IMG/VR virus record: IMGVR_UViG_2869924733_000002
DNA: 23,140 bases
From: a virus
Lineage: Duplodnaviria; Heunggongvirae; Uroviricota; Caudoviricetes
Reading direction: 5' to 3' (one strand)
The position numbers were made by a program, and so were the translations under genes. Shown here piece after piece: positions 1,513 through 21,925 of this stretch. The first letter of the stretch is position 1, and every line of letters begins with the position of its first letter. The notes beneath the pieces are model-generated. The model did not search any database. It was not told the origin of the DNA and saw only the letters and a list, made by a program, of their open reading frames with translations.

Positions 1513-1650
1513 CTTATTGATTTTTGGGATAATAGGAACAATACACATAGGCGATAAGCTTTGTTTTTGTTGCCTTTTTTATTGTTCATTTTTTATAGAT
1601 ACCCCCAAAAGTACCCCCATATCTTTTTCCGCCCCTGAAATTTGGTTGTT
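1513..1650. other. Possible attachment-site/arm region 3' of the integrase fragment
   Basis: AT-rich and ORF-free, directly downstream of int. TACCCCCA occurs as a direct repeat at 1600-1607 and 1612-1619. No partner att copy is available in the window. Confidence 0.2.
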
Positions 1651-2939: not shown

Positions 2940-3165
2940 ACGTCATACCCTCTGGAAGGATGAAACACGCCCGGATTAAATTTCATTTTTCGCGGGTATA
3001 AAAAAACGATGGGGCGGGCAGTCCCGGATAGTCAGGGCTGTAGAGATTTGACTACCCCCTCCCCACTGGATTCAGGTTACTGCTATTCCGTTAAGCGCTG
3101 CTTACGGGGATAGCTGCGTTGTGATTTTGACCATTCAGGTCGCCGCTATTTCCTCACCGATTGGG

Positions 3166-3200
3166 TGCTACGCGCGCGCGTACTTGTCCCGAAATACCAG
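3166..3200 (+). repeat. CG-palindrome motif, copy 1 (tgctaCGCGCGCGCGTACTTGTCcCGAAATaccag)
   Basis: One of three same-orientation copies. Contains the 14-bp palindrome TACGCGCGCGCGTA. Confidence 0.8.
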
Positions 3201-3236
3201 AAACCGCCAGCCAGAGGATGATTTCCCTCTGGTGGT

Positions 3237-3518
3237 CTACCTTTGCCTCTTGCCGCCATTTAACCGGAAGGCGTTACCGTTCGGTTGCGCTATCCCCATG
3301 CGGTGTTGCGTTTCGGTAACAGCTTTATGCAGGTCGCCAAATTCCTCAACCTTCACGGGCGGGCGCTTCACGTTCTCCAGACACGTTTCACGGCGGCGCT
3401 TTATCCATTCCCGATCATCGTCCTCGGTGCATAACAGCATGACTTCCATCCATCGTGCGGCAGCTCTCCGGTATAGCCCTTTTGACTCCAGCTCTTCAGC
3501 TTTCCTGTCCCTTATCAT
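3237..3518 (-). CDS. PerC-family transcriptional activator
   Basis: AEELESKGLYRRAAARWMEVM...DDDREWIKRRRETC matches the PerC-family core as I recall it (GLxRRAAxRW...REWIxxRR..C). Confidence 0.75.
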   Translation of the reverse strand: MIRDRKAEELESKGLYRRAAARWMEVMLLCTEDDDREWIKRRRETCLENVKRPPVKVEEFGDLHKAVTETQHRMGIAQPNGNAFRLNGGKRQR

Positions 3519-3547
3519 TTCTGCCTCTCAGATTATATAGATAAGCA

Positions 3548-3678
3548 AAAAGGTGTTGGTTCAGTTGGTTCAGTTGGTTCAATTTGTAAAGAGTATTGTT
3601 TTTAAAAGAATTATTCGCAAAAAGTGAACCAACACACCCCATTTTTGAACCAACAAAAAGAGGCCGTGAACCAACACG
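3548..3678. repeat. Iteron/origin-like block L: 3 tandem GTTGGTTCA, an AT-rich spacer, then 3 inverted TGAACCAAC
   Basis: GTTGGTTCA x3 at about 3555-3581. (G/T)TGAACCAACA at 3624, 3646 and 3667, spaced 21-22 bp. An AT-rich stretch lies between the two sets. Confidence 0.8.
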
Positions 3679-3749
3679 CCGTTTAAAAACCGCTAATTAT
3701 GAGGGACATCCACCAGCACAGGGCTTGTCTAGTGCTGGTTAGGTGCTGC

Positions 3750-3941
3750 TCACCGCGCACGGAGCGGCGCTGGTTTGCTCCAGCGATATGCGGGGCTGGT
3801 CATCATTTCGCGGTACCGCCTGGCTATTACAGGGCCCTCTGCCAGCTGGCGCCTTAATTCCCGCAGTTCTGCCGGGCTGAGCTGGTGGCCGCCATGCTCC
3901 AGCTTGGCAATGGTCAGCAGCTCGATTTCTCGTGGTGTCAT
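3750..3941 (-). CDS. Small conserved hypothetical protein (63 aa), paralogue of 2754-2939
   Basis: Start chosen at MTPREIELL..., which has GAGGGG 5 nt upstream. Paralogy is described under 2754-2939. Confidence 0.65.
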   Translation of the reverse strand: MTPREIELLTIAKLEHGGHQLSPAELRELRRQLAEGPVIARRYREMMTSPAYRWSKPAPLRAR

Positions 3942-4086
3942 GGATTCCCCTCTGATGGTGATCGGCATTATATTGCTAGCCAGGGTGATTCTTCACTGGC
4001 CAGAGCCGTTGTGCGTGAAGTCTATGCGTGAACTCCATATGCTATGTGTTAAGTTACAGCTCAAAATGTCCTGTTCCGGTGGTAAC

Positions 4087-4143
4087 TTTTTGGTAAACAG
4101 CGTTTTGGTGGATACCAACATGGATACCTCGCTTTTGGATACC
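4087..4143 (+). promoter_or_regulatory. Direct-repeat array upstream of alpA (TTTTGG / TGGATACC motifs)
   Basis: GGATACC at 4110-4116, 4122-4128 and 4137-4143, and TTTTGGT at 4087 and 4103. The array lies in the divergent intergenic region between the 63-aa gene and alpA. Confidence 0.3.
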
Positions 4144-4192
4144 ACCCAAAGCCAGATTGTCACTATGCTTAATCTAAAGCAGAGGAGCCTCT

Positions 4193-4378
4193 ATGCGCCT
4201 TATCAAATTAAGCGAAGTCATGCTCAGAACGGGCTTCAAGAAAACGGCAATCTACTCATGGGTTAAGACGGGCACGTTTCCACAGCCAGTTAAAATTGGT
4301 AGATCAGCTAGATGGTCGCTTGAGGAGGTTGAAGCTTGGATCCAGAACAAACTTGATTCGCGGGCTGGCAACCAATGA
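4193..4378 (+). CDS. alpA: AlpA-family (prophage CP4-57-type) MerR-like DNA-binding regulator
   Basis: MRLIKLSEVMLRTGFKKTAIYSWVKTGTFPQPVKIGRSARWSLEEVEAWI is the AlpA/phage transcriptional regulator pattern. A GAGGAG RBS is present. Confidence 0.85.
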   Translation: MRLIKLSEVMLRTGFKKTAIYSWVKTGTFPQPVKIGRSARWSLEEVEAWIQNKLDSRAGNQ

Positions 4379-4910
4379 TTAGCTTTAATATCGAGTGGTG
4401 GATAGTCCATGGACAAGCTGATGGGCGCACTCGACGAAAACGATGCGCCAGGCGGACTGTGTCGCTCATAAACCGGGAGTTGGCCAGAGGACTTAGTTGT
4501 CCTTTGCAATTCTGCAGGTTCGCACGTGAAAGTAGCCAAAACCCTGCGAACCTGAGTGCAAACCTGCAACTGCGAACCACTGAGGTGGCCTCTCATAGCT
4601 GGTGGTCATACTGGATATTAATCAGGCCTGCCACAACCATAACAATCCATAACAGACGCATCGCACCAACAATTACTAATAGGTCCGCTCGCAACACTAA
4701 TTTTGACTAAGCCTGAACGCAATGCTCAGAAAGAACGAAGAATGGAATGAATCGTACCATCATGTTGCTCCATGATTTTTACGTTCAAGACAGTTGCTTA
4801 ATCTCGCCTCGCAATTCAGCCCCCTTGCCGTTATCGAGAAGTCTTTCTCCTTACGGTTAATGCTATCGGTCTTCATATTACCAGCAGCATACGCCATCCG
4901 ATTATTTCGA

Positions 4911-4943
4911 TGCTACGCGCGCGTACTTGTCGCAAAATACCAG
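4911..4943 (+). repeat. CG-palindrome motif, copy 2
   Basis: tgctaCGCGCGCGTACTTGTCgCaAAATaccag. It also shares ccgatt...tgcta in the left flank with copy 1. Confidence 0.8.
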
Positions 4944-5011
4944 GCAAAGGCCAGATTCAGAACGTCGTGATAACCACCAGTACAACATGAGAGGTCATGT
5001 AACGCGATTTA

Positions 5012-5383
5012 TCACACCAGATACATGTGATTGGTGTACCCGCATAAAACATCGTCATAGCGCGTCCTGTGCGCATATACGCCGATAATCAACACATCAC
5101 CACCACTCTGTCTCATGTAGAGAACAGTTTTATGGTATCCCCCCGCCATCGTGTGCATACTGGTCGGACGTAGTTGCAAAATTTTTTGCAACTGATACCC
5201 CTCGCGCGCGTACTTGTCTCGAAATTGGTGTTTTGCTGTGGCAGTGATATCAGAAAAATCTTCCTGTTTCACATAAAGCGGATATGCGCGTACTGTAACG
5301 GCCCCATCAACGGGGATCGGATTTGAAATCCCGACCCAAGCTATGTACCAAATGCCATGTCTTGGATATATGATGATTGCCAT
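5012..5383 (-). CDS. Doubtful hypothetical ORF
   Basis: The open frame has no RBS. It contains CG-motif copy 3 and a perfect 20-bp palindrome (5173-5192), so this DNA may be regulatory rather than coding. Confidence 0.25.
   Translation of the reverse strand: MAIIIYPRHGIWYIAWVGISNPIPVDGAVTVRAYPLYVKQEDFSDITATAKHQFRDKYAREGYQLQKILQLRPTSMHTMAGGYHKTVLYMRQSGGDVLIIGVYAHRTRYDDVLCGYTNHMYLV
5201..5225 (+). repeat. CG-palindrome motif, copy 3
   Basis: ctCGCGCGCGTACTTGTCtCGAAAT, in the same orientation as copies 1 and 2. Confidence 0.75.
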
Positions 5384-5411
5384 TCTAAACAAAGCTAAAG
5401 GGAGGGTTGGT

Positions 5412-5762
5412 GTGAATGCTCAGGCTGTCATCATGGTTTTCCTTGGTCTGATTGTCGCAAAACTATATCCAGACTGGTGGAAAGGGGCATTAGCAACTGT
5501 CGCCATCTATTTGCTTTTATCCGTCGTTAAGCGATCGTTCGTTAAGACCGTAAATCAAGCAAAACGTTTCTCATTTAAGAATTTAATAAACTATATTACT
5601 GGGCTTATTTTTTGCCTTTCAATTTTGATCGCCTCAGCTTTTTTGCCCGTATCAATAGCTAATTTTTTTGGCGCACCATATGAGGTAGGTTATCTATTCT
5701 CTGTTTTTTGTCTTGTTCTTTCCCTTCTTTACCTATGGATGAGAGCAAAGAACAAAAATTAG
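5412..5762 (+). CDS. Small polytopic membrane protein (about 116 aa from the GTG start), AT-rich moron-like gene
   Basis: AAAGGGAGGG lies 5 nt before the in-frame GTG at 5412. There are three to four hydrophobic segments. The gene is visibly AT-rich and converges on the gp16-like gene. Confidence 0.55.
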   Translation: MNAQAVIMVFLGLIVAKLYPDWWKGALATVAIYLLLSVVKRSFVKTVNQAKRFSFKNLINYITGLIFCLSILIASAFLPVSIANFFGAPYEVGYLFSVFCLVLSLLYLWMRAKNKN

Positions 5763-5780
5763 CCATCCATGGCTAACCAG

Positions 5781-7879
5781 TTATTGAGCTTCTTTTTGTG
5801 ATGCCTGTGCGACTCTGGTGAGCGATTGTGTGACCGTACTGATCGCTCTGTCATATGCTGTGCTACCTTTTGGCGTATTTGCCAGACGTAACAAGGCATT
5901 TCGTATAACAGGGCTTTCGTATGCCTTCGCTGCTCCGCCTACGGCACCAGCAGCAGGAACAACAAACGCAGCCGTTTTTAGCATCCCCGCTAATACTGCT
6001 GCGTTTATGATGCCACCACCAACTAACAATCCATAAAGCTGCTGACCATTTAAGTTTTGAACGTTCGCTTTTGCCGCGTGTCTTGTATCGTTGAGGTATT
6101 TAATAACGCCGTCCAGTTCCTTTCCATGTACGCCTTTAAAGAAAGTTGCTGATTGCTTCCTGTTCCGGTGTAACGCATTAATAAACTTCTCAACACTGAT
6201 ATTTCCAGACGGATCAGTCGCCTTATCTACAGCATTCTGAACTATGGCTGCTCGTGCGTTTTGCCTACCATTGTCATCCAGAAGCCTGTAAAGCTGAGAA
6301 CGTTCTGATGGGCTTTGGCTAAAAACGAGTTTTGTTACATCCTCAGGCGTGGCCTTGCCGCTGGCTATTGCCTTTTGAACGCGCGTTCTTCCCATCATGT
6401 CATTGAATTTAGACCATGAGCGATCAACCCTTGCCATATTAATGGCTTCGTCTGCTCCAAGATTTTTGGCTACGGCTTTTTTCATATCCGCCGTATATGC
6501 CTTGTAGATAATATCGCTGGCTTTCTGGAGCGTATCTTTATCAACAGTGTCAGATGACGCCATAAATCGCTTTCGAAGATCGGTTCTGTTTTCCCTCGCC
6601 AGACGCAGGTCATTTGGTCCGCTGGTGATATCGTCTTTAAATTGCTGCAAGACTTTTACCGCGGCTCTATCCTGAGATTTGCCCGGGCGGCTTAACACGG
6701 CAATCTGATTGTCGATAGCTTTTACCGTGTTTGAGAGATCGACAGGGGTATCCCCCATAGCGTCAATTATGCGGTTATATCGCTTTCCTGCTGCCTCAAT
6801 GAATTTTTGTTGCCCTTTAGTCGCAGATTCATAAAGCTGTTTATCAGAAATGCCACCCAGACCATCGCTAAATGTTCTGACTAAATTTTCTCGTGCTTGT
6901 TGTTGATTCAGCCGATTCTTACCGGTTCCAAAAAAAGGAACTCTTTCGCCTAATGTCTGAGCCTGACTCTGCATAAAGGTTTTATCTTTCAGCATGTCAC
7001 TGGTCATTAACGGCAGATTTCTTTCCGATGCAAAGTCGACAGCAGCCTTTGCTTCAGGCGACATATCACCACGAACAGCCCTCGAAACCGCACTCGCTGT
7101 ATTTTCCAGCCCCTTACCAATACCACCAATGCCAGCAGAAATTACCGTTTGTAACGGATCAATATCTTCTCCACCAGCAAGGCTGGTGGCTCCCTGTAGT
7201 GCTAAATCTGTAGCTGCTGATTTTCCTATAGCACCAAGCACCGTTCCAGCCCTGCCCACTGGTGTAAACGCCAACGCATTAGCAAGAAACGAAGTCAGGT
7301 CTTGCGGTGATAAACCCGGCTTGTTCAGGGCATAATCACCTGATGGCAGAGAAACGATAGTATTCCCCTTCTCATCCTGCCTTAATGTCGCCCCCATTCC
7401 CTGAAGAATCTTTTCCTGAGACGCGTCAGAGCCGAAAAGTTGAGACCATCCAGCCTTTAGGGCATCCATGCTTAGTGAGTTCAATTCTGGGGCAGAGGTG
7501 ACATTTTGCAGTCTCTCCATCTCTGGAGTCATTCGGCTTTCGCCTGTTATAGCATCGCGCATCGCAGCCCCAAGACTGGCTCCCTGTTCTGCTGAACGCT
7601 CAAGCCCCTCTCTTTGCTGAGTAGCTAACTTTGCATACCCTGACGCAAGAGAATTATCAGATGATGTATGTTGAATATTTTGAGTTGCTGATTGGGATCG
7701 GTCTATTTCATTCGTTGATGGTAGTGGATAGGCAGCATAAAAAGCCTGCTTAGCCTGCTCTACACTTTCTCCGGCTTGCGGGGCAACGACTTCATTGAAG
7801 TATTGCTCCTGAGCCTGCGCTTTTTGTTCTGGTGCTAACGCCTGATACTGTGGAGAGGCGATAACATCTTTCCATGCTT
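5781..7879 (-). pseudogene. P22 gp16-type DNA-transfer (ejection) protein; its first 7 nt (8798-8804) are separated by an IS
   Basis: Third and largest gene of the gp7/gp20/gp16-order cassette. Joining 8804..8798 to 7879..5781 gives a 701-codon frame beginning MAKAWKDVIASPQYQALAPEQKAQAQEQYF... The start overlaps the gp20-like stop (TAATG). Confidence 0.7.
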
Positions 7880-7881
7880 TA

Positions 7882-8797
7882 GGCTGTGTCCCTTAATCAT
7901 CTGAGCTATAGTAACTGTCTGTTTACACAACATATTGAACTATGGCTCGCTACGACCTTCCCGATGAGGCATGGACCATCATCAAGCCCCTGTTACCTCC
8001 TGAACCCGCCACACCACGGGCCGGACGCCCATGGGCTGAGCACCGTAAAATCATCAATGGCATGTTCTGGGTGTTATGTTCCGGTGCACCATGGCGCGAT
8101 TTACCCGAACGATATGGGTCATGGAAAACTGTTTATAACCGCTTTAACCGATGGTCAAAGTCAGGCGTGATTAATATTATTTTCAACAGGTTGCTTTCGC
8201 TACTTGATGCAAACGGCTTTATTGACTGGTCTGCCACCGCGCTGGATGGCAGTAATATCCGGGCGCTGAAATGTGCCGCCGGTGCTCAAAAAAACATCCC
8301 GATATCGACGGAGATAATGGGCCGGGTCGCTCTCGCGGCGGTTTTGGCACCAAAATCCATCTGGCAACAGACGGAAGTGGCCTCCCGTTAAATATCGTGC
8401 TAAGCCCCGGACAAGCTCATGAAAGCCAGTTCGCGCAACGACTTCTGGACGGGATTGGCGTTCAGCGTCAGAACGGCAGCATGAAACGCCGTGGACATGC
8501 GGTACTGGCTGATAAAGCGTATTCAGGGCGCGCATTGCGCAACGAGCTGAAAAATAACGGTATAAAGGCAGTAATCCCCCGAAAGTCAAATGAGAAAATG
8601 GCATCGGATGGACGTGCACAGCTTGATCGTGATGCGTACTGCAATCGTAATGTCGTTGAACGGTGCTTTGGGCGGCTGAAAGAATATCGCCGCATCGCCA
8701 CGCGTTACGACAAAACGGCGAGAAATTACCTGGCGATGGTGAAACTGGGCTGCATCCGACTCTTTTATCAACGCTTACGTAATTAAGGGACACAGCC
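7882..8797 (+). mobile_element. IS5-family (IS427-group-like) insertion sequence, 916 bp
   Basis: Perfect terminal inverted repeats GGCTGTGTCCCTTAAT (7882-7897 and 8782-8797). TA duplication at 7880-7881 and 8798-8799. Confidence 0.9.
7942..8786 (+). CDS. IS5-family DDE transposase made from two frames by a -1 frameshift at an A7 run
   Basis: OrfA (7942-8391) and OrfB (8271-8786) overlap. A7 lies at 8288-8294. A -1 slip gives ...GAQKKHPDIDGDNGPGRSRGGFGTKIHLATDG... Confidence 0.85.
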
Positions 8798-8803
8798 TAG
8801 CCA

Positions 8804-9887
8804 TTAATCACCCCATAGTGAAGAAAAGTTACTGCTGGCTGCTGGCTGTGATACCTGCTCAGATTGCGGCAATGTCTGCGACGAAGAAGAAGTTCCTCTG
8901 TCAACTGCTGAAATAACCCGCAAAGCATCATAAGCTCGACCAGAAGCAGCTTTCAGCGAATTGAACTGGTTTTCCATCTTCCGGCGCTTGGTATCAATGG
9001 TTTTTGTGGAGTCGCCAGGCTGAGGGAAATACATTTGATAATATTTTGACATTTCAGCAGGTGCGATAGCTGCCCCTGTTTCCTGACGGAGTATTGCCAT
9101 TATTGCGTCATTAGCATTAACAACGTATTGCTGCTCTGTTGGGCTGAGCGTTAAGTTAGCCAGCGTCCCATTACCCAAAGCATTATTAATGATCGCCACT
9201 CGCTGTGGGCTAAGCTGGTCTTTCAGTGTATCTATTGAATCAAGAGCATCCCTAACCCTGTATGCAAATCCAGCAGCTTTTTTAGCCCCTTCTGGCGACT
9301 TTTCCATGATCTTTTGGGCTGTTGGCAAAGCTATTGGACGAAACCCATCTCCAGATATTGGCTGGTTTAGTTTTCCCTGCTCTTCACTTCCGTCTGTGTA
9401 GTATTTTGTGACAGTGCCATCATCGTTTTCTCTAACACTCATTAATTTTTTGGCGTTTGTATTAATTCCAGCCGCTGCCGCAAATGCCGCCGCCCCCTCT
9501 GGATCCGCCTTTAACATTTGAGCGTACTGATTGTAATTCTGCATTGCTGCTGTTGGTGCATATGCTGACGTTAACGCATTTGCTCGGCTAATATCCTGCC
9601 CTCTCGCCTGAAGTGCTTCGCCAGCCTGATTGCTGCGGATTGTCTCTGCCAACTTGCCACGCTCAATATCCCGACCTTCCATTTGATCTTTGATATCGAA
9701 ATACTTCTCATGACCGAGAGAAAACAGTGCCATACTACCAGCAAGCCGCTGGAATCCCTGTGGATCATTAACATGCATTTCGGCAACAGACTCAGGAGAA
9801 ATTCCCAAGCGACGCATTTCATCTTCGTTATCTGCTATGAATTTTCCAAATGCCCCAGTTCCGAGCGAAGATGCGATTTGAGCACTA
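8804..9887 (-). pseudogene. P22 gp20-type DNA-transfer protein, 3' portion (split by IS630)
   Basis: Continues in frame from 11041-11380 once IS630 and one TA are removed (...HLATSAQIASSLGTGAFGKF...). The restored gene is 473 aa. I recall P22 gp20 as about 471 aa. Confidence 0.7.
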
Positions 9888-11040
9888 AATAGCTGCGCTT
9901 AATACCGCTACACTTTTGCCAGTCCATGTTTGCCTCCGGGGAATGGGCTGACGGTTTCCATAAAATGGCGAACTTTTTTCAACAGTTGCCACATTGAGCG
10001 GCACTGATGATTACGCGTTATTGTGTCGTGAAGTGCCTGCCATAGCCGTTCAACATGATTCACCCATGGCGAGTAAACCGGCTGATAAATGACCCTGAAC
10101 TTCGGGTTCTCCTTCAGCCAGCTCTGTGTTTCCCGGCTTTTGTGGATAATGTAGTTGTCCACGATCAGCGTGATGGTTTTCGCCCGACGGTATGTCGCTT
10201 TAAGCCGCTTCAGCAGGCTGATGAACAGCGCCGAACTTTTGCTGTTGCCGCCCACATAGCTGACTTTACCTGTCCCGCTGTGCAGCGCTCCGGCCAGATA
10301 ATATTTTTCATTCTGTCCCGGCGTGACCACCCGTTTTTGCTGTCCGCGCAGTTGCCAGTCCGCACCGATTTTGGGATGAAGATGGATATCCACTTCATCT
10401 TCATAAAAGACCGGATGCTCTGCGCTGCATTCGTCCAGTGCTTTATGGATTGCTGCCATCTTTTCATCTTTATGCGGGTCACGGATACGCAGAGTTGGCG
10501 CAGCCCTTCGCCACACAATCCCCGCAGACGGCAACCAGCGGCGAACGGTTCCGGCATTTAACTGGCAACCGGTTATCTCATTGATTTTTATTGCCAGCAG
10601 TTCTGTACTCCAGCGTGAACGCTGGTAGCCAAAGTCGCCGGGAGAATGTTTTACCAGCTCACGTAACAGTGTGCAGATATGCTCAAACGGCCAGCGACGG
10701 GCACGCCCGGCAGGTAATGATTTCAGTCCCTCAACACCCGACTGCGTGAACCAGTTAATCCAGCGTCCAACAGAGGAACGGGCGCAGCAGAGCGTTCTGG
10801 CAACGTCGCTGACACGGTCGCCCCGGTGCAGCATCAGCATGGCAGTCAGTCTGCGGGCATAATTTTTATCGTGTGTTTTATGGATGGCTTTCTGCATCAG
10901 GCGTCGTTCGTCACGGGAAATTGGTGCTATGATCGGCATTGCTCAGTCCGGTTGGTGATTTGTTTTGATTTGGCGATTGATCAGATCGCACAATCCGGGC
11001 TAAGTTCCCTCAAAATGATCTACTATTCCGCGCAGCTATT
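9888..11040 (-). mobile_element. IS630, 1153 bp
   Basis: Imperfect terminal IRs beginning AATAGCTGCGC at both ends. TA duplication at 9886-9887 and 11041-11042, which restores a CTAG target. The 1153-bp length matches my recollection of IS630. Confidence 0.9.
9908..10939 (-). CDS. IS630 transposase (343 aa)
   Basis: Full-length ORF MPIIAPISRDERRLMQKAIHKTHDKNYARRL... recognised as the IS630 (Tc1/mariner-like DDE) transposase. Confidence 0.95.
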   Translation of the reverse strand: MPIIAPISRDERRLMQKAIHKTHDKNYARRLTAMLMLHRGDRVSDVARTLCCARSSVGRWINWFTQSGVEGLKSLPAGRARRWPFEHICTLLRELVKHSPGDFGYQRSRWSTELLAIKINEITGCQLNAGTVRRWLPSAGIVWRRAAPTLRIRDPHKDEKMAAIHKALDECSAEHPVFYEDEVDIHLHPKIGADWQLRGQQKRVVTPGQNEKYYLAGALHSGTGKVSYVGGNSKSSALFISLLKRLKATYRRAKTITLIVDNYIIHKSRETQSWLKENPKFRVIYQPVYSPWVNHVERLWQALHDTITRNHQCRSMWQLLKKVRHFMETVSPFPGGKHGLAKV

Positions 11041-11380
11041 TAGTCGCAAGATGACCAATAGAATTTCTCTGGTCGTCATCAATAAAGCCCATCCCTTTCT
11101 GAACGCTTTCAAATTCTTCTGGATACTCAGAAATAAGACTGCGCATTTTGTTTCTGTCTCCAGACTCAAAAGCCCCGGCATATGCTTTCTGAAACTCTGC
11201 TTTACGCTGTTGTTGACGTGCCTGCTGATTAATCTCAGCAACGCCTCTTAGCCCCTGTAGCGCCATTAAACCTACGTTTGGGTGCTGCTGATACTGCACA
11301 GGCTGAGGAACGGAAGAACGAGGAGCATTATCATTTTGCGGTGCCATGCTAGGCAGCCCGCCAAGTTGCCATGTCGCCAT
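11041..11380 (-). pseudogene. P22 gp20-type DNA-transfer protein, 5' portion
   Basis: The start overlaps the gp7-like stop (TAATG). The apparent stop at 11036-11038 lies inside the IS630 end. Confidence 0.7.
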
Positions 11381-12057
11381 TAGAATCCAAGCCCCCCAAC
11401 AAGACCAATAAGCCCACCACCAATAGCCCCGGCGACATTACCTATACCCGGAACAACGGAACCAAGTTGCGCACCCGCTAAAGCGCCTGATGCCGCCCCA
11501 CCAATACCACGCGCAAGACTGGATGGCTGCTGCGCCTGACCTGCACGAATAGCGCCAAGCCCCTGCAAGAGTTGCCCGGTATTATTGGCGTAGTTTTGCC
11601 CTGCTGTTGCCTGCCCTGATGCCGCATTCATCCCGACATTTAGCAGGTTTCCATAATTTTGCATTTGCCCACTGAGCCAATTGTTATAAAGCATGGGCGC
11701 AATGGAAGATAACTGGTTACTGGTAGCTGTTGAGCCAAGCCCCCCGGTAGCTTCTGCTGAGACAAGGTTCTGATAACGGGCCTGATCTGCCTGTGTTTTA
11801 TATAAACCAGAACCAAAGAAATCATTCGCGGCTTTATTCTGCCCTTCCAGAGTCATCAGTCCTTGCAGTTGTTGTAAAGCAGGCAATCCGACTTCTGCAT
11901 ACGGCTTGAGATTATTCATCACCGTATTCCACTGCTCGCGCTGCAAATCAATTGCCTGCTGCTGGGCCTTCGCCTGAGCTTTAGAGGCACCACCATCACC
12001 GCCTTTTTCGTATACGGCACGATTGAGATGTTTATGAGCTATATGGGTAATTAACAT
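11380..12057 (-). CDS. P22 gp7-type DNA-transfer (ejection) protein, 225 aa
   Basis: Size and position match gp7 (about 229 aa as recalled). It has a Gln/Asn-rich body and a Gly-rich hydrophobic tail, and is translationally coupled on both sides. Confidence 0.7.
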   Translation of the reverse strand: MLITHIAHKHLNRAVYEKGGDGGASKAQAKAQQQAIDLQREQWNTVMNNLKPYAEVGLPALQQLQGLMTLEGQNKAANDFFGSGLYKTQADQARYQNLVSAEATGGLGSTATSNQLSSIAPMLYNNWLSGQMQNYGNLLNVGMNAASGQATAGQNYANNTGQLLQGLGAIRAGQAQQPSSLARGIGGAASGALAGAQLGSVVPGIGNVAGAIGGGLIGLVGGLGF

Positions 12058-12512
12058 TCGCTGAATTCCTTATATTGTTGCCGAGTTAACTGATAAAGCG
12101 TTACGCCGACGGGTTTACCACATCTGATATAAGCATCATCAAGGTGACCAACACGGGTAGCGCCAAGCAAACGGATAATTGCCCGTCCATATTTCGTGGT
12201 GTCAGGAACCATAGTGATGCTGTTAAGGAATGGTGAGTTTTCGAGAAGCCATTTGCAGAATAATCGATGCCCTTGCAGTGCATATTCACCACGGAATCCG
12301 GGGTCGTACACCGCATGGCATTCAACAACGCTATGCCAGAAGTTACGCACTTCATGAACGCCAGCCAGCACTAATCCTTCGTAGATGCCGAGATATACCG
12401 CATCAGGCTTGATGTAGTACGTGTGCCCCGGCTCAACAATATTTTCGGTATTGCCTGGCTCGTTAAGAAAGGCCTGTAATCGCACAGGGTTATCAATAAA
12501 TTTTAGTTCCAT
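12051..12512 (-). CDS. gp14-position protein (DUF2824/GNAT-fold-like), 153 aa
   Basis: Sits directly upstream of the gp7-like gene, as gene 14 does in P22-like phages. YDPGFRGEYALQGHRLFCKWLL resembles a degenerate GNAT motif A. The family name is from memory. Confidence 0.55.
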   Translation of the reverse strand: MELKFIDNPVRLQAFLNEPGNTENIVEPGHTYYIKPDAVYLGIYEGLVLAGVHEVRNFWHSVVECHAVYDPGFRGEYALQGHRLFCKWLLENSPFLNSITMVPDTTKYGRAIIRLLGATRVGHLDDAYIRCGKPVGVTLYQLTRQQYKEFSEC

Positions 12513-12528
12513 GCGATGCCATCCATTT

Positions 12529-12690
12529 TCACATACAGCCTGCCAGCGCCTTATCTATTAACCCTCGTGCAATTTCATGCAGAGTTGGCGCTACTCCAAT
12601 TCCTGATTTTTTACGCTGCTCTTCCTGAATTTTCTTTATCGCTTCCATTTGCTTCTCACTTATCAATACCGGCTTTACTGAAATAGCCAT
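12529..12690 (-). CDS. Ribbon-helix-helix (Arc/Mnt-like) protein, 53 aa (below the ORF-track cutoff)
   Basis: My own translation gives MAISVKPVLISEKQMEAIKKIQEEQRKKSGIGVAPTLHEIARGLIDKALAGCM. The pattern is beta strand, helix, G-x-x, helix. RBS AAGGGGG lies 5 nt before the ATG. Confidence 0.55.
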   Translation of the reverse strand: MAISVKPVLISEKQMEAIKKIQEEQRKKSGIGVAPTLHEIARGLIDKALAGCM

Positions 12691-12702
12691 AACGCCCCCT
12701 TA

Positions 12703-12729
12703 TAACTGTATAAAACAACAGTTATTATA
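12703..12729 (-). promoter_or_regulatory. LexA (SOS) box overlapping a perfect TATAAT -10
   Basis: TAACTGTATAAAACAACAGTTA at 12703-12724 is CTGT-N8-ACAG with 7-bp palindromic arms. TATAAT (minus strand, 12729-12724) abuts it, about 34 nt upstream of the RHH start. Confidence 0.6.
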
Positions 12730-12784: not shown

Positions 12785-12816
12785 CAAAAAAATGCCACCG
12801 CTCAGTAGCTGGTGGC
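12785..12816 (-). terminator. Rho-independent terminator (minus strand)
   Basis: GCCACC-N11-GGTGGC followed by A+T7 on the minus strand. It lies between the primase/ori region and the SOS promoter. Confidence 0.5.
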
Positions 12817-13136: not shown

Positions 13137-13256
13137 GTGTTGGTTCAAAATACCGTGTTGTTGGTTCAGTGTTGGTTCAATAAAAAGAATAAAATCCTTA
13201 TAAAACAATACCATTTACAAATTGAACCAACTGAACCAACTGAACCAACACCTTTT
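13137..13256. repeat. Iteron/origin-like block R, immediately 3' of the primase-helicase gene
   Basis: TGAACCAAC x3 in tandem at 13223-13249, an AT-rich spacer, then three GTTGGTTCA-type repeats at 13137-13180. This is the mirror image of block L. Confidence 0.8.
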
Positions 13257-13274: not shown

Positions 13275-16034
13275 TCATTCTTCAGATGAGTTATAATCTC
13301 CTGGCTGGTAATTGAGTACATAAACGTTTATTTGTCGTCCCTGAATACGTGGTGATTTTCTTTGGTATCCACGACCGCTGTTTGGTGGGGTTAGCATCCC
13401 GGCTTTTTTCAACACTTCAGCAAACTGTTTTGCGTTGAAACCACATGCGATCTCCTTTTCAAATGTGGCCGGGAATGTGTAGAAAATCATTGGGCTTTCG
13501 TCATGTTCTCCACGCTGACGGTATCCGGCTAAATCTTTGATGGGCAAATCTGCCGGGCTGTATGGAAATGGTGCAAAACGGCTAAGCCCATAGGCATTAA
13601 GAAATGCCTCCGTTTGTTCAATAATCTGCTGATGTTCTTTGTTACCTGTGCCGAACTCGCGCAACCATGCGTTATAGCTGTGCTGTATCGCATCACGGCA
13701 TGTCTGAGCATCCCAGCCTGTTACAACCTCGCCTAACAGCAATGCGGCCTCCAGAATGGCAAATCGCGCGGCTACACGGTGAACCTGCTCACCATAATCG
13801 GATGGGATCAGGTTTCTCCATCTGCTTTCGCAATCACGAACGGTTTTAATAGCCTGTTGCTGGTGGTCTGCCAGCCATTTAATCCACTCACGCCCGGCTG
13901 CGCCGTGGTGATGCTGGTAAGCGTCTTTCAGTGCGTCTGCGTGCTGTTTTCCGTTCTGGTAATCGTGAAAGCGTACTGCTTTACTCAACGGAATATTCAG
14001 CAGTCGCACCAGTTGCCCGGCTTTGGTTTTTCGCCCGGAAGTAGCGATAAATGTTTCTAAATCCATTTCTCCGGTGCTGATTGCCACTGTACGCCAGCGT
14101 TTTAGATCCCGGTTTCCACCATCTTTAGCGCCTTGCAGTTTCCCTACACCGTTAAATAACGCATAGGCAGACTGTGAAACGCTGACAGGATCAGCGCCCT
14201 GACCAACTTCATCAAGCGGCATTAGTCCGTCATTGTGGGCGGCGGCCTCATTTGCCAGCCCCAGCGCGGTTCCGTACCACGTCAGCCGCAGTAAATCAGG
14301 GTTGCCGTATAAGCTGCTCGCCACGTTTGCCGTGGTGGTCTTACCTGCGCTCGACTGCTCATAGAAATGAATGCCGAACCCGTCAGCGCCCACCAGCCCA
14401 ATCAATGGCGCTGCCAGTGCTGCGCCGATCCCGGTCATCATTGAATAGTTACCAAAGGCCAGACGCGCCACGTTATCACGCCAGCTTTTCGCGCTCCCTG
14501 AGACGGTATATCCGGCTGCGGCTGAGCTTCTCCCGCTGAACAGCACAGGATTTTCAGGTGTTCCGATGATTTCCCCATCAGGCATGATGTACGCTCCGCA
14601 TTGCCAGCCAGTGGCATGAGCAACACGCCACAATTCACGAGAGCCACTGCGTTGTAGCCAGTCTGCCAGTATTGCTCTGAGGCTGCTTTTGGTCGTGACA
14701 TTTACCCCACCAGCTTTAAGTGTGCGCCATCCTTCACGTTCACCAATATCAGCCAGTGGAATGGCAGCGGTTGTCGGCGTTTCAGAACCAAACGACAGCC
14801 AGCGAAGAATGAGATACTGGTCTTTATCGTCTCTGCCAGTACCGATAACGCTTAACGGAGAACATAACCAGCTTTCGTTATTGATGATTTCTCCACTCTG
14901 GCTGTCAGCTCTCGGAGATACCCAATAAATACCATCCTCGCGGCTTTCTATTCTTGGTTTCAGTGGGTCGGTATCCATAACCTTAAAATCGCTTCCCTCA
15001 ATGGTCTGTGGCTCCTGTTTCACGCCATTACCCTGTGGTTGGTACATTGACTTATTGAACGCTTCTGTGGCGCATTTAATGCCGTGTTTTTGGTGGTAAT
15101 CATTCCAGTCTGCTTTGTGATCTGTCGGGGGTAATGCCACCCATCCAGAAACAGATAAAGCTGCTTTTTCTGCTGCTATTCTCCCCGTGTTTTGTCTTCC
15201 TTCGCTGTGGTCGTTATCCGCAGCAATGATGATTTGTGCTGAAGGAAATTTATCCCGCAGTACCTGGGCGACATATAACAGGTTCCCGGCATCAATCGCC
15301 GCCACTGTCAGCGCCTCTGGACGAATTAAATGGGCAGATAATGCCGTTGCCAGCCCTTCTGCGATTAAGATGCTCTGTGTTGTTTCTGGCGCGTTTATGG
15401 CGTGATATGCCCCCCGCTTTGCTGAACCTGTCAGGAGTCTTTTTTCACCATGTGATGTAATAGTCTGTGCTGCTGTGACTGCGCCGGATTTATCCACCAG
15501 CGCCAGCAACAGAGATCCATCGGGCAACACGGGGAATGTAAAATCACCTACCCCTTTCGCAACCAGATAATCAGATTTGCCGTTTACAGCCTTTCTGCGC
15601 ATGTCATCAAACTGACGGGAAAACGTATCCCGTCTTTGTTGTTCGTCCTTCTCTGCCCTTTTCAGGCGCTCCTGTTCGCGTCGCTGGCGCTCGGTTTCCA
15701 GTTGTTCCCGTTTCTGGCTGGTGGCTTCTGGTGTTTCCGTTGTCCGGTAATCAATACCCAGAACATCAGCGGCAAGAAGCGCCGCCTCTGTTGTGTCGCA
15801 GTTATTTACGCGTTTAATTAAATCCAGCCCATCACCAGCGCCGCACTGATTACAGATGAAGCTACCGCGCCCGTTGTCATCGAACCGGAATCGATCTTTG
15901 CCCCCACATGCAGGGCAGGGAGCATGACGGCGCGGAGAGTCAGGGACATTTATGTTCAGGCAGCCCAGCACATGAGGCCAGTTGTTTTCAGACGCACTGA
16001 TAACCTGACGGATAAGATCAATGTTTCGCATCAC
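13275..16034 (-). CDS. P4 alpha-like primase-helicase (zinc ribbon + TOPRIM + DUF927/SF3-type P-loop), 919 aa
   Basis: CPACGGKDRFRFDD...FICNQCGAGDGLDLI zinc ribbon, a TOPRIM-like ILIAEGLATA...IIAADND, and Walker A in YEQSSAGKTTTANV. The start is GTG 16034 or ATG 16031. Confidence 0.9.
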   Translation of the reverse strand: MMRNIDLIRQVISASENNWPHVLGCLNINVPDSPRRHAPCPACGGKDRFRFDDNGRGSFICNQCGAGDGLDLIKRVNNCDTTEAALLAADVLGIDYRTTETPEATSQKREQLETERQRREQERLKRAEKDEQQRRDTFSRQFDDMRRKAVNGKSDYLVAKGVGDFTFPVLPDGSLLLALVDKSGAVTAAQTITSHGEKRLLTGSAKRGAYHAINAPETTQSILIAEGLATALSAHLIRPEALTVAAIDAGNLLYVAQVLRDKFPSAQIIIAADNDHSEGRQNTGRIAAEKAALSVSGWVALPPTDHKADWNDYHQKHGIKCATEAFNKSMYQPQGNGVKQEPQTIEGSDFKVMDTDPLKPRIESREDGIYWVSPRADSQSGEIINNESWLCSPLSVIGTGRDDKDQYLILRWLSFGSETPTTAAIPLADIGEREGWRTLKAGGVNVTTKSSLRAILADWLQRSGSRELWRVAHATGWQCGAYIMPDGEIIGTPENPVLFSGRSSAAAGYTVSGSAKSWRDNVARLAFGNYSMMTGIGAALAAPLIGLVGADGFGIHFYEQSSAGKTTTANVASSLYGNPDLLRLTWYGTALGLANEAAAHNDGLMPLDEVGQGADPVSVSQSAYALFNGVGKLQGAKDGGNRDLKRWRTVAISTGEMDLETFIATSGRKTKAGQLVRLLNIPLSKAVRFHDYQNGKQHADALKDAYQHHHGAAGREWIKWLADHQQQAIKTVRDCESRWRNLIPSDYGEQVHRVAARFAILEAALLLGEVVTGWDAQTCRDAIQHSYNAWLREFGTGNKEHQQIIEQTEAFLNAYGLSRFAPFPYSPADLPIKDLAGYRQRGEHDESPMIFYTFPATFEKEIACGFNAKQFAEVLKKAGMLTPPNSGRGYQRKSPRIQGRQINVYVLNYQPGDYNSSEE

Positions 16035-18212: not shown

Positions 18213-19061
18213 GTGCCACCTCCATGCGGATACGACCAGCAAAAAAGCAGATGTGATCGCGCACCAGAGAACGGCGAGCATCGCGTTCAGACTCGGCAGC
18301 AATATGATGAATTTTGGCGGTAATTGTCGGGCAATCGCGGCGAACTGCGGCGATAATCCAGATAAATTGCGGTTTTTGGGTAGTGGTAGTAGCCAGCATG
18401 TGGCAGCCTCCTTGTACTGGGAGTTCTTCCCACCACCGGAGCTGCGAAACTCGCTGGTGGTGGACTGAACAGAGTTCGCAGTACCGGCGTACAAGGAAAC
18501 CGGCCAGCCTTTCGGCTGCCCTGTCCAGCCCACCATAATTTTGCAAGCGACGCGGATTATAACCGCATCACTGAAAAAAGTGTGAGTCTGGCTAACGGCA
18601 CAAAAAAAGACGCTCGGCGCGTCATGTGTCGCCTCGTACATTTCCGGGCTGCGAAACCCGGCACCCGTTTTATGAGGTGCCTTATAACCATAAACCGTGT
18701 TGCCGCATAACGGCAAGCTCTTTTTTATGGACTCCGAAAACTCACTATTGGAAGCACCAGATGCACAATACATCGCGCTCATTTCGTTAACGTCGCGCGT
18801 GTGGACGAAGGTTTTTGTGGAGTCACTACGCGAGCAGAGAAAGCCATCTACGACCAGAAATTCTCTGGCGCAGCCGCCGACCTTCTCAACGCTAACACCA
18901 TCGACCGTAATTTCTGACATAGTTAAGGCATCCGCTCCCACCACCAGAAAATGATAAACTTTGCTTGTATCTGCTGTATTAATGCCAGACTTTGCTGTCA
19001 TATTGCTGGATTTTGGCGACATACCAGCCAGTGAAAATATCTTCTTCTGGACGGTTAGCAT
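17994..19061 (-). CDS. 355-codon open frame, probably composite; only the 5' part (about 18546-19061) is likely to be an independent gene
   Basis: The start is strongly coupled (GGAGGTTAACAAATG overlapping the upstream stop). The frame then runs through the Ash/RNA region, across the Icd-like gene in another frame, and into the 72-aa gene. Confidence 0.35.
18205..18399 (-). CDS. Host cell division inhibitor Icd-like protein, 64 aa
   Basis: [21 protein letters not shown]...[10 protein letters not shown]...FFAGRI matches the P4 Icd-like pattern from memory. AAGGAGG lies 7 nt upstream. Confidence 0.65.
   Translation of the reverse strand: MLATTTTQKPQFIWIIAAVRRDCPTITAKIHHIAAESERDARRSLVRDHICFFAGRIRMEVAHD
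18400..18545 (-). ncRNA. Candidate P4 CI / P1 C4-type immunity RNA region (the stretch usually annotated as 'Ash family protein')
   Basis: Translates as [34 protein letters not shown] (Ash-like). It holds a GNRA hairpin (CAGCC-GAAA-GGCTG) and a CCACCACC/GGTGGTGG stem. The position upstream of icd matches P4. Confidence 0.3.
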
Positions 19062-20075: not shown

Positions 20076-20507
20076 TTAAGCGGCGTTAAACGCGTCCGGG
20101 TAGAGTTTCAGAATGTCGGCAATTTCCTGCTGAGAAAGTCCGTTGTGATCATTTATGTTCGCAAGATGGTTAATATGAGTGATCACTTTCAGAACATCAC
20201 CACGGCAGGAGAAACGGTAGCGAAGGTGTGTTCCGATACCATCAGGATTCTTTTCGTCGATACGCTCCAGAGTGATTCCAAGCTGGCGTTCTAACTCTGT
20301 TGCATAGTTACGACCAGAAGACAGACGGCAGTAGCGAAGAATGTCATTTTCTGTCCATCCCTCTATACCAGTACGCAGCATATAGACTCTGGCACGATGC
20401 TTTTTCGGTGTGCGCTTTGGTGCTTGAAGGGATTTTGTAAGGGGCGTAACATCAGATACGCGAATATCTGAATTAGCCGCCTGTAATGGGCGGTTTTTCT
20501 TATTCAT
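20076..20507 (-). CDS. Hypothetical protein, 143 aa, with a basic N-terminus
   Basis: The start overlaps the alpA stop (TAATG). No family recognised. Confidence 0.6.
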   Translation of the reverse strand: MNKKNRPLQAANSDIRVSDVTPLTKSLQAPKRTPKKHRARVYMLRTGIEGWTENDILRYCRLSSGRNYATELERQLGITLERIDEKNPDGIGTHLRYRFSCRGDVLKVITHINHLANINDHNGLSQQEIADILKLYPDAFNAA

Positions 20508-20704
20508 TACGCTACCTCGCCACGCGACTCAGCGATGCGCTGATTAATCCATTCTTCAATTTCACTTTCAATAAACGCAATTGATCGGCTTCCAATCTTT
20601 ACAGATTGAGGGAATCGCTGTTCTTTGATGAGCCGATAAATCCACGCTTTGCTGTAACCAGTACGGCGTTGAACCTCAGAAAGACGAATAAATGATTGAG
20701 ACAT
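20507..20704 (-). CDS. alpA: AlpA-family regulator
   Basis: MSQSFIRLSEVQRRTGYSKAWIYRLIKEQRFPQSVKIGSRSIAFIESEIEEWI. AGGAG RBS. Confidence 0.85.
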   Translation of the reverse strand: MSQSFIRLSEVQRRTGYSKAWIYRLIKEQRFPQSVKIGSRSIAFIESEIEEWINQRIAESRGEVA

Positions 20705-20901: not shown

Positions 20902-21783
20902 CTATAAATCTCTACTCATTAAATCAGATATTTTTATCAAGCTCATTTCTCTGTCTTTGTTTACATAAAGCTGAAGCAAGCGGGTGTATCTCTCGCTTAT
21001 AGATTCAAGTGCAAAAGGCTTTATTGATTCCTTAATAGCCTGCGTATCTTTCGGATCATCACTAAAAACCAAGGCAGAAATCATCGGATTGCTCACTTCC
21101 TTACCTGACTTCTCACCCCAAATCAGCAGATCAACAATAGGTATCACTCTATTAGATATCAACTTCTGAAGGGTCTTTAATCCAATCCTTTTCTGAGCGA
21201 CATGCTCTCTCTCTGGTACTTTTAACTCTTTTCGCCATAGAGGTAGAAGGTGAGTCAGGCTGGTAATAATTTCGTCATCAGTGGCGTCATCTAAATCTAT
21301 AGAAACGAGTATGATGTTAGGGGAACAATTACTTAGGTTTCCAGTAACACTCGCAAGCATAGCGTTTGCCTTGAGGTAGCAATCCTCTTCGTCTCTTTTA
21401 AAAAAGCCTTGATCTATCGATGAGAAAGAGTACATGGCCAGCTCTGAAAATGTTACTGGACTAACCCCCATAGCTGAAGATAATGAGGGAAGATCATCGT
21501 ACTCATTTCTTAATGATGGGGCTTCATCATTTACTTTGCGAATAAATTCTTCGACCTCTTCCTCTTCTTCATTGAGAATGGTTAGGTTAGGATCGCCCGA
21601 AAAAATCCTTTCATATTTTATATCGTACTCTTCTTTGAATATAGCAGTGTCATCTTTTGCATGACGCAATAAAAAATCGCGCCACTCTAATTCTTGAATC
21701 AAGTCCGGCAAGGTTAAATCATTTAAAAATTCATAATTACTAATATCAAACCATGCTAAATCTTGTTTTTTGGCTCTCACCAT
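20902..21783 (-). CDS. AT-rich orphan protein, 293 aa, adjacent to the integrase (possibly DUF6387-like; uncertain)
   Basis: Long ORF with a plausible RBS. GC looks like roughly the mid-30s percent by eye, against about 50% in the flanks. It has an acidic EEEEEVEE tract and no motif I recognise. Confidence 0.7.
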   Translation of the reverse strand: MVRAKKQDLAWFDISNYEFLNDLTLPDLIQELEWRDFLLRHAKDDTAIFKEEYDIKYERIFSGDPNLTILNEEEEEVEEFIRKVNDEAPSLRNEYDDLPSLSSAMGVSPVTFSELAMYSFSSIDQGFFKRDEEDCYLKANAMLASVTGNLSNCSPNIILVSIDLDDATDDEIITSLTHLLPLWRKELKVPEREHVAQKRIGLKTLQKLISNRVIPIVDLLIWGEKSGKEVSNPMISALVFSDDPKDTQAIKESIKPFALESISERYTRLLQLYVNKDREMSLIKISDLMSRDL

Positions 21784-21925
21784 ACGCCACCCCGCGCCCC
21801 TAATTCTGACGGCTATGCCAGCCCGTAGGGGTGTACGGGTTTTCGGGGATCAGCCTAGACATAGCCTATTCTTTGTTCGTCTACATAAGTCTACTACCAT
21901 TGCTTAACACGGTCTATTCATACAG

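Follow-up and report, generated by a model that had tools for sequence, protein, structure and literature searches.

EcCIMP1 is a 19,963-bp phage-inducible chromosomal island (PICI) of Escherichia coli MP1 that excises in the presence of the P22-like phage Kapi1, by which it is specifically transduced (Pick, Stadel & Raivio, ISME J 2025; PMC11773190). It lies between proA and yagU (CP139039, 3565708-3585670), and its describers marked the genes following the primase as "DNA transfer" or DUF2824 homologues shared with Kapi1, not as ejection proteins (PMC11773190). Here we analyzed a related locus in IMGVR_UViG_2869924733_000002, an IMG/VR virus record of 23,140 nucleotides (the window). Between positions 5781 and 12729, behind a P4-like primase gene and its putative origin, the window carries a cassette of four genes whose products we identify as P22-type ejection proteins (E-proteins). 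Sequence comparison identifies the region as the late module of a PICI of the EcCIMP1 type, which depends on P22-like podoviruses as helpers and is integrated at the tRNA-Thr gene thrW.

Gram-negative PICIs are known to hold captured helper late genes in a "late zone" (NAR Genom Bioinform 2023; PMC10111431); text searches of that study found no mention of tape-measure or ejection genes. In Vibrio cholerae, PLE satellites supply a tape-measure protein, a chaperone, and a baseplate hub from genes of their own (Nature 2026; PMC12987554), and these tape-measure proteins are incorporated into PLE virions (PMC12987554). A preliminary description of the window had stated that satellites are not known to carry ejection genes, which is contradicted by EcCIMP1 (PMC11773190), the PICI late zones (PMC10111431), and the PLE tape-measure proteins (PMC12987554). 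The element family, late-gene capture by PICIs, and satellite tape-measure proteins are already published. New here are the recognition that the cassette comprises a full P22 set of ejection proteins and has a minimal form consisting of gp20 and gp16; a candidate SOS-box promoter with a conserved leader gene; and a locus at which, across a PICI clade, tape-measure proteins, internal virion proteins, and E-proteins apparently replace one another.

The ejection-protein cassette and its island

The four genes lie on the minus strand, belong to four P22 families, and follow the P22 order 14-7-20-16 (Table 1). They are tightly coupled, with overlaps of 7 nt between gp14 and gp7 and of 1 nt at both the gp7/gp20 and gp20/gp16 borders. 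Two of them are interrupted by insertion sequences (IS). With IS630 excised in silico and the join checked, the gp20 homologue is 473 aa long; its two halves match PF16928 ("Inj_translocase") with E values of 1e-21 and 6e-24 (open reading frame [ORF] fragments 11036-11380 and 8804-9817). The gp16 homologue is 701 aa when restored without its IS, and the phrog_770 match was obtained with a 593-aa ORF at 5781-7562. The preliminary description had recognized four coupled genes of 153, 225, 473 (restored), and 701 (restored) aa and had compared them with P22 genes 14-7-20-16. Its sizes and coordinates were all correct, and Pfam, PHROG, and BLASTP comparisons with P22 and Kapi1 bore out the assignment to the E-proteins.

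Identity to the P22 proteins by BLASTP is 56% for gp7, 24% for gp14, 38% over the N-terminal half of gp20, and 30% over 478 aa of gp16. The gp14-like product is 84% identical to gp14 of Kapi1 (BLASTP), and the satellite gp20 and gp16 are ~24-26% identical to those of Kapi1 or not alignable. Among 50,697 phage records, the best match to the 701-aa gp16 allele reaches 66% identity. Short patches of cassette DNA are 90-93% nucleotide-identical to P22-like phages. Sequence searches found no solved structures of gp14, gp7, gp20, or gp16 relatives. As had been noted earlier, no portal, coat, tail-needle, tailspike, or terminase family was matched among the window ORFs scanned, and the cassette does not follow gene 26 in a virion late operon with portal, coat, and terminase genes.

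The surrounding genes have the layout of a PICI of about 20 kb: a co-oriented integrase and AlpA gene, a Bro/AntA zone, a primase-helicase with an origin, and a late/accessory zone. The island has no capsid, terminase, or lysis genes of its own among the window ORFs scanned. Going upstream from the primase to AlpA, we found hypothetical genes, an Ash-family ORF, DUF4222, and AntA. At the other end, beyond a convergent 139-aa gene, come a PerC-family gene, a pRiA4b-ORF3 gene, and then the attachment (att) core TCCTATTATC. Window positions 1509-23140 are 99.8-100% identical to an IS-free island in E. coli 6409, with similarity beginning at 1509. Minus its two IS, the island in the window measures 19,564 bp, compared with 19,963 bp for the whole of EcCIMP1. 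The thrW-side context (paoABCD, yagU) matches EcCIMP1; the right att site and tRNA-Thr fall beyond the window end.

In the window copy, the cassette is dead, because IS cuts both gp20 and gp16. The IS-free allele of E. coli 6409 is 100% identical over both empty sites, so both insertions are precise, as had been proposed from the window. There is no IS at the primase-cassette junction. An IS600 (IS3-family) transposase gene and the 3' fragment of a second tyrosine integrase lie left of the att core. Together, IS600, IS630, and the ISSfl1-like element point to a Shigella-type, IS-rich genome, and the window element is an allelic variant of the published satellite, inactivated by Shigella-typical IS. 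The gp16 gene of E. coli 6409 itself contains a frameshift at ~13430, where the window reads "GERVPFF"; this is either a true mutation or an assembly error.

Table 1. Features of the window, from the cassette outward
Feature	Position	Strand	Remarks
gp14-like gene	12051-12512	-	153 aa; Pfam DUF2824, E=1.5e-61; phrog_651
gp7-like ejection protein gene	11380-12057	-	225 aa; PF25688 P22_gp7, E=1.9e-72; phrog_598
gp20-like gene, 5' part (codons 1-113)	11041-11380	-	PF16928 / phrog_917
gp20-like gene, 3' part	8804-9885	-	PF16928 / phrog_917
gp16-like gene, first 7 nt	8798-8804	-	ATG overlaps gp20 stop codon by one base
gp16-like gene, remainder	5781-7879	-	phrog_770 "DNA transfer protein", E=9e-155
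53-aa gene, first of operon	12529-12690	-	conserved; protein identical to WP_001018524.1 of E. coli islands
LexA-box-like palindrome CTGT-N8-ACAG	12706-12721	-	CTGTTGTTTTATACAG; 2 nt past TATAAT
Cassette promoter -10 box TATAAT	12724-12729	-	perfect match; read directly from sequence
Two copies of conserved ~15-bp site TTTCA-N5/6-TGCAA	12731-12775	-	upstream of -10 box; candidate regulator sites
Intrinsic-terminator-like hairpin with T-run	12794-12809	-	ATTTTTTTGT tail; between primase/origin unit and cassette operon
Terminator-like hairpin	5757-5778	-	right after gp16 stop; common to convergent gene
Convergent 139-aa protein gene	5343-5762	+	four predicted membrane helices (hydropathy); slot of sieA after P22 gene 16
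IS630 in gp20	9888-11040	-	1153 bp; TA target duplication; DDE_3 and HTH transposase domains
ISSfl1/ISSfl7-like IS5-family element in gp16	7883-8797	+	915 bp; 3-bp duplication; after codon 2
Iteron block, putative island origin	13137-13251		GTTGGTTCA; three direct and three inverted copies
P4-alpha-like primase-helicase	13275-16034	-	919 aa; Zn ribbon, TOPRIM, DUF927
C4 antisense RNA and isrK	18453-18540, 18603-18680	-	Rfam, above gathering score; within Ash-family ORF; P4-type RNA immunity
AlpA gene	20507-20704	-	integration zone
DUF6387 gene	20902-21783	-	integration zone
int-alpA RNA	21798-21865	-	Rfam, above gathering score; between integrase and DUF6387 genes
Tyrosine integrase, P4-type	21926-23140	-	ends exactly at window edge
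att core, island left end	1528-1537	-	TCCTATTATC; same as EcCIMP1 att core (PMC11773190)
IS600 (IS3-family) transposase gene	1-819
Second tyrosine integrase, 3' fragment	1198-1512

Native linkage, promoter, and exchangeable cargo

We surveyed complete E. coli genomes and related loci. Among 5,426 complete E. coli genomes, 240 contain the 1.4-kb junction running from the primase end through the iterons and the 53-aa gene to gp14, at 97.7-99.9% identity, and 181 contain the entire 4.9-kb cassette of the allele type seen in the window. The junction occurs at thrW and also between yicC and dinD, where the integrase is different (L002, L003, L086); in L002, the cassette is joined to a different replication module. 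In L003 and many other genomes, the 53-aa gene is followed by gp20 and gp16 only. A Leclercia island (L034) combines a primase 68% identical to that of the window with a 53-aa gene (85%), gp14 (84%), and gp7 (83%), followed by gp20 and gp16 of the EcCIMP1 type.

These data bear on the possibility that rearrangement in an IS-rich genome joined a satellite to leftover DNA of a P22-like prophage. The presence of IS600, IS630, and the ISSfl1-like element in one window would suit such an origin, as would the tandem elements that thrW carries in other strains. However, the identical junction is free of IS in the 240 E. coli genomes, and it also exists at other integration sites and in Leclercia. The cargo breakpoint falls at the 3' end of the 53-aa gene, and no flanking P22 virion genes were found at any locus inspected. 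None of the cassette-bearing loci inspected places the cassette inside a P22-like prophage; the apparent exception, H114, is a tandem of two islands. Because the IS-free junction is so widespread across genomes and sites and extends to Leclercia, we regard the prophage-debris explanation, which the preliminary description had left standing, as effectively refuted. The adjacency is not confined to one strain, and the proteins do show homology to ejection proteins, the two points on which the earlier proposal could have failed. Since the IS-free arrangement recurs in E. coli genomes by the hundreds, occupies at least two sites, and extends to a second genus, we conclude that the gp14-gp7-gp20-gp16 cassette is native to this island family and widely conserved within it.

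The cassette is intact in 9 of the 12 cassette-bearing loci inspected, the damaged ones being the window copy, E. coli 6409 (gp16 frameshift), and a tandem remnant. Between islands, the ratio of nonsynonymous to synonymous substitution rates (dN/dS) is 0.07-0.08 when E. coli is compared with Leclercia (dS 1.0-1.9) and 0.14-0.37 when both islands are from E. coli, values that indicate purifying selection. That no relative of the 701-aa gp16 allele exceeds 66% identity among the 50,697 phage records fits a long residence in satellites, unsampled prophages aside. A thrW tandem array in E. coli B18271 (L090, 12029-26860) consists of a complete related PICI and an adjoining remnant. The complete PICI has a 57-aa leader gene followed by a gene for a 223-aa hypothetical protein, and the remnant retains a truncated gp20 and an intact gp16.

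The arrangement of signals around the cassette indicates a separate operon, with terminator-like hairpins at both ends, its own promoter, and a leader gene. A simple sigma-70 scan did not flag the promoter because the -35 box is weak. The palindrome CTGT-N8-ACAG next to the -10 box, which matches the core of the LexA box, occurs at one site in the 23-kb window, where 0.28 sites are expected by chance. The exact arrangement TATAAT-NN-CTGT-N8-ACAG is kept in all E. coli islands fetched, in the Leclercia island, and in two islands of the tape-measure type described below (L015 and L024). Most remaining relatives have CTG-N9/10-CAG at the same spot and two TTTCA-N5-TGCAA sites upstream. These TTTCA sites were read by eye, without a computed alignment, from the 110 nt upstream of the 53-aa gene starts in ~30 related islands. 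Because the exact promoter arrangement is conserved, the site is single, and it matches the LexA-box core, we think that the palindrome is probably an SOS operator and not an operator for the 53-aa protein.

In 31 of the loci fetched, a homologue of the 53-aa protein (43-87% identity) is encoded behind the primase gene, and BLAST breakpoints show that the cargo diverges from the 3' end of this gene for the 53-aa protein onward. The 53-aa gene therefore belongs to the island backbone and lies outside the phage-derived block. The preliminary description had labeled its product a ribbon-helix-helix protein, and this label was not confirmed: neither the single sequence nor a 23-sequence profile gave a credible Pfam or PDB match, and Foldseek returned nothing. 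An AlphaFold2 monomer model, with an extended N-terminus and two helices, is compatible with such a fold.

We then asked what follows the leader gene in other species. The scan was seeded with the primase and took one genome per species and at most 80 loci, a sample rather than an exhaustive census; we counted the 39 other-species loci in which the primase relative is full length and is followed by 6 kb of sequence or more. The 53-aa gene is present in 24 of the 39, and in 21 of these 24 the next cargo is of a conduit type. Eleven loci carry a tape-measure protein, usually behind a ~108-aa protein (e.g., phrog_1107, E=0; phrog_1538, E=1.5e-152). Six carry a shorter tape-measure-like protein with a lytic transglycosylase domain (phrog_2013, E=7e-139 in L006), the weaker members of this group being assigned by tblastn to exemplars. 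Three carry a four-gene set of podovirus internal virion proteins (phrog_418, 1044, 3003, and 684), and the Leclercia locus carries P22 E-proteins. The int/AlpA/AntA/Ash/primase backbone is common to all these islands, and no further tail genes follow the tape-measure gene in the islands inspected. The slot thus appears to be filled repeatedly by a protein predicted to form or open a DNA channel, drawn from three virion morphotypes.

We considered whether these are helper-embedded PICIs, in which a late gene belongs to the surrounding prophage (PMC10111431), and rejected this: the tape-measure and E-protein ORFs are full length, lie behind the island's own 53-aa gene, and are followed by no further tail genes. 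Two loci differ from the common patterns. A Serratia primase relative (L037, 13002-15021) is followed by a tail-fiber gene and a baseplate-hub gene, and in a Pectobacterium island (L035, 15130-19407) a gp20-like and a gp16-like region are fused within one protein of 1,425 aa.

On its far side, the cassette adjoins a gene at the position that sieA occupies in P22. In the window, this slot holds the convergent 139-aa ORF, which resembles sieA in position and topology; it was dropped as a SieA homologue, having no BLASTP match to P22 SieA, and it has no match in PHROGs, Pfam, or the 50,697 phage records. In L002, the slot (7401-8015) encodes a SieA homologue (30% identical to P22 SieA, E=1e-6); in L085, a 204-aa protein assumed to be SieA-like; in L003 (7939-8337), a signal-peptide protein; and in EcCIMP1 (11749-12447 of L004), the 232-aa lipoprotein WP_000594596.1. 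Every island variant has an envelope protein in the slot after gp16. Behind the 906-aa gp16 allele, the slot always encodes the 232-aa lipoprotein, and behind the 670- and 701-aa alleles, one of several convergent small proteins. These envelope proteins may account for the EcCIMP1-dependent superinfection immunity reported by its describers.

Two kinds of repeat were seen elsewhere in the island. A second, inverted copy of the iteron-end origin-primase sequence lies in the accessory region at 3548-3612 (~94% over 65 bp). A ~22-nt motif, ATTT[CT]G[ACG]GACAAGTACGCGCGCG, has three minus-strand copies at 3177-3194, 4920-4937, and 5207-5224, and its 18-nt repeat matches Kapi1 terS at 17 of 18 positions (MT813197, 18875-18892). 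We dropped the repeat as a pac-site mimic. It is also found upstream of the primase, mostly outside long ORFs, in tape-measure-type islands of other species and is therefore not specific to helper type. A permissive Rfam scan of 3000-5800 returned nothing.

Proposed mechanism and rival explanations

In P22, gp7, gp20, and gp16 ride in the virion, exit before the DNA, and are all required for its entry. We lean toward the view that the satellite makes E-proteins for use in helper particles, where they would serve the delivery of island DNA. Either the SOS response or induction of the helper would relieve repression, and the satellite would express its own ejection proteins, which, like those of the helper, would be built into helper procapsids. 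In the next infection, they would form a channel across the envelope through which the packaged island DNA would enter. The likely benefit would be that the satellite determines how its DNA enters; its route might, for instance, be insensitive to SieA-type exclusion in lysogens of the helper. A plausible but unproven gain is access to helper lysogens that shut out E-proteins of the helper type; such lysogens would be of no use to the phage and ideal for a satellite. SieA-escape mutations of P22 map to gp16 and gp20, and these two proteins cannot be exchanged singly between phages, whereas gp7 can (PMC10883804). The islands that carry only gp20 and gp16 therefore fit a module centered on the specificity-determining pair. 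By analogy, the delivery module would be the podovirus counterpart of tape-measure replacement by PLE. Regulation of this general kind has a possible precedent: the packaging and morphogenesis operon of a staphylococcal island (SaPI operon I) is reportedly under LexA control, a finding ascribed to Ubeda et al. in 2007.

A broader proposal extends this to an Enterobacterales PICI clade with a swappable genome-delivery module, placed behind a LexA-box leader gene and matched to the helper morphotype. Its chimeric virions would have satellite-set entry and escape SieA-type exclusion into helper-excluding lysogens. We offer this wider version tentatively and doubt that it holds in every part.

Several points weigh against the proposed delivery role. 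The LexA site is a pattern match only, and according to the authors of the EcCIMP1 study, alpA answers to the helper and not to DNA damage itself (PMC11773190). Transduction of EcCIMP1 by Kapi1 is inefficient, and its authors found the Kapi1 titer unaffected by EcCIMP1 (PMC11773190). No terS or pac function was identified for the island. The window copy is inactivated and the E. coli 6409 copy frameshifted in gp16, and the purifying selection could partly date from time spent in phages.

The main rival assigns the cassette and the envelope protein after gp16 to the resident cell, where they would block DNA entry by superinfecting P22-like phages and have no place in the virion. EcCIMP1 does add superinfection immunity against Kapi1, and no known defense system was found in it (PMC11773190); PADLOC likewise matched no known defense system in the window, its cassette and accessory region included, and the envelope protein holds the sieA position in every variant. 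Nonetheless, resident-cell exclusion seems unlikely to us. E-proteins lack export signals and, in all phages studied, belong to the virion, and the membrane protein alone would suffice, as SieA does in P22 (PMC10883804). The LexA-box promoter suggests that the E-protein genes are off in uninduced cells, and the parallel cargo of relatives, tape-measure and internal virion proteins, is structural. Alternatively, satellite E-proteins could compete for procapsids and yield non-injecting particles with mismatched gp16 and gp20, curbing helper spread. P22 carrying only gene 16 or only gene 20 of Sf6 indeed assembles non-infectious particles (PMC10883804), and the divergence of the satellite gp20 and gp16 from those of Kapi1 would allow such a mismatch. 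We consider this interference quite improbable, since Kapi1 titers from induced lysogens are the same with EcCIMP1 (PMC11773190); mixed particles would also cripple the satellite's own transfer equally.

A comparably poor prospect is neutral capture, in which the late zone of the PICI passively carries helper late genes that do nothing for the satellite. Such clusters are documented (PMC10111431), and the near-identical nucleotide patches shared with P22-like phages and the decay in the window copy and strain 6409 agree with passive carriage. Selection, dedicated regulation, and recurrence speak against it: dN/dS is well below 1 between E. coli and Leclercia islands at dS values of 1-1.9, the copies are mostly intact, the dedicated promoter and leader gene are conserved, and the same functional class, channel or penetration proteins, was acquired repeatedly from three phage morphotypes. 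The describers of EcCIMP1 suggested a role in DNA packaging for EcCIMP1_017-019 (PMC11773190), and these genes do occupy the position of the packaging genes of other PICIs, where they might redirect helper packaging to the island. We disfavor a packaging module and rate it very unlikely, as the products are specific homologues of gp14, gp7, gp20, and gp16 and not of terminase, Rpp, or capsid-size factors.

Should satellite E-proteins indeed form the entry channel, the "ejectosome" would be a third virion function reprogrammed by satellites. These are known for hijacking capsid size and packaging, and control of DNA entry has only just been shown, in one Vibrio satellite family. Part of the E-protein allele diversity among P22-like phages could then stem from exchange with a reservoir in satellites, and SieA-like exclusion systems would gain a new class of targets or evaders. 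Podovirus satellites are little studied, and EcCIMP1 is experimentally tractable.

Comparison with known systems

The closest relative is EcCIMP1 (MP1 locus L004). The primase and gp7 are 100% identical between the two, gp14 is 98% identical, and the 53-aa protein is the same; they also share int, AlpA, AntA, DUF4222, Ash with the C4/isrK RNAs, the gene order, and PerC and pRiA4b-ORF3 at the far end. They differ in their gp20 and gp16 alleles. The EcCIMP1 gp20 has 439 aa and is 48% identical to the 473-aa gp20 of the window over the first 188 aa, and its gp16, with 906 aa and a lytic transglycosylase domain, cannot be aligned with the 701-aa gp16 of the window. Unlike EcCIMP1, the window has a DUF6387 gene, two IS, and a four-helix protein in place of the 232-aa lipoprotein.

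Genes 14-7-20-16 of P22 lie within its late operon. The satellite cassette has the same families, order, and tight coupling as P22 14-7-20-16-sieA (BK000583), followed by a convergent membrane-protein gene. In contrast to P22, there is no gene 26 upstream and no mnt/arc/ant or tailspike downstream, identity is 24-56%, and the cassette has its own promoter and leader gene.

With satellite P4, the island shares a P4-alpha-like primase-helicase, a P4-type integrase with an Arm-binding domain, AlpA, and C4/isrK-type RNAs. However, psu, delta, and sid have no Pfam or PHROG match among the ORFs scanned, and the demonstrated helper of the EcCIMP1 family is a P22-like podovirus, not a P2-like myovirus. 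Like Gram-negative PICIs, the island has four zones (integration, Bro/AntA with immunity RNAs, replication, and a late zone), with helper late genes behind the replication module. Beyond the late zone as described, it has a conserved 53-aa leader gene with a LexA-box promoter, and its cargo is limited to conduit or penetration proteins.

The PLE satellites of V. cholerae provide the nearest functional parallel. PLE is an unrelated element family with a myovirus helper and tape-measure proteins, and incorporation has been demonstrated for PLE, whereas here we infer it. In the proposed reading, both kinds of satellite would replace the helper's central DNA-conduit protein and travel in chimeric virions. 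PLE11 encodes Rta, an inhibitor of the helper's version, alongside its own protein; in the window, a gene for an exclusion-type envelope protein adjoins the cassette.

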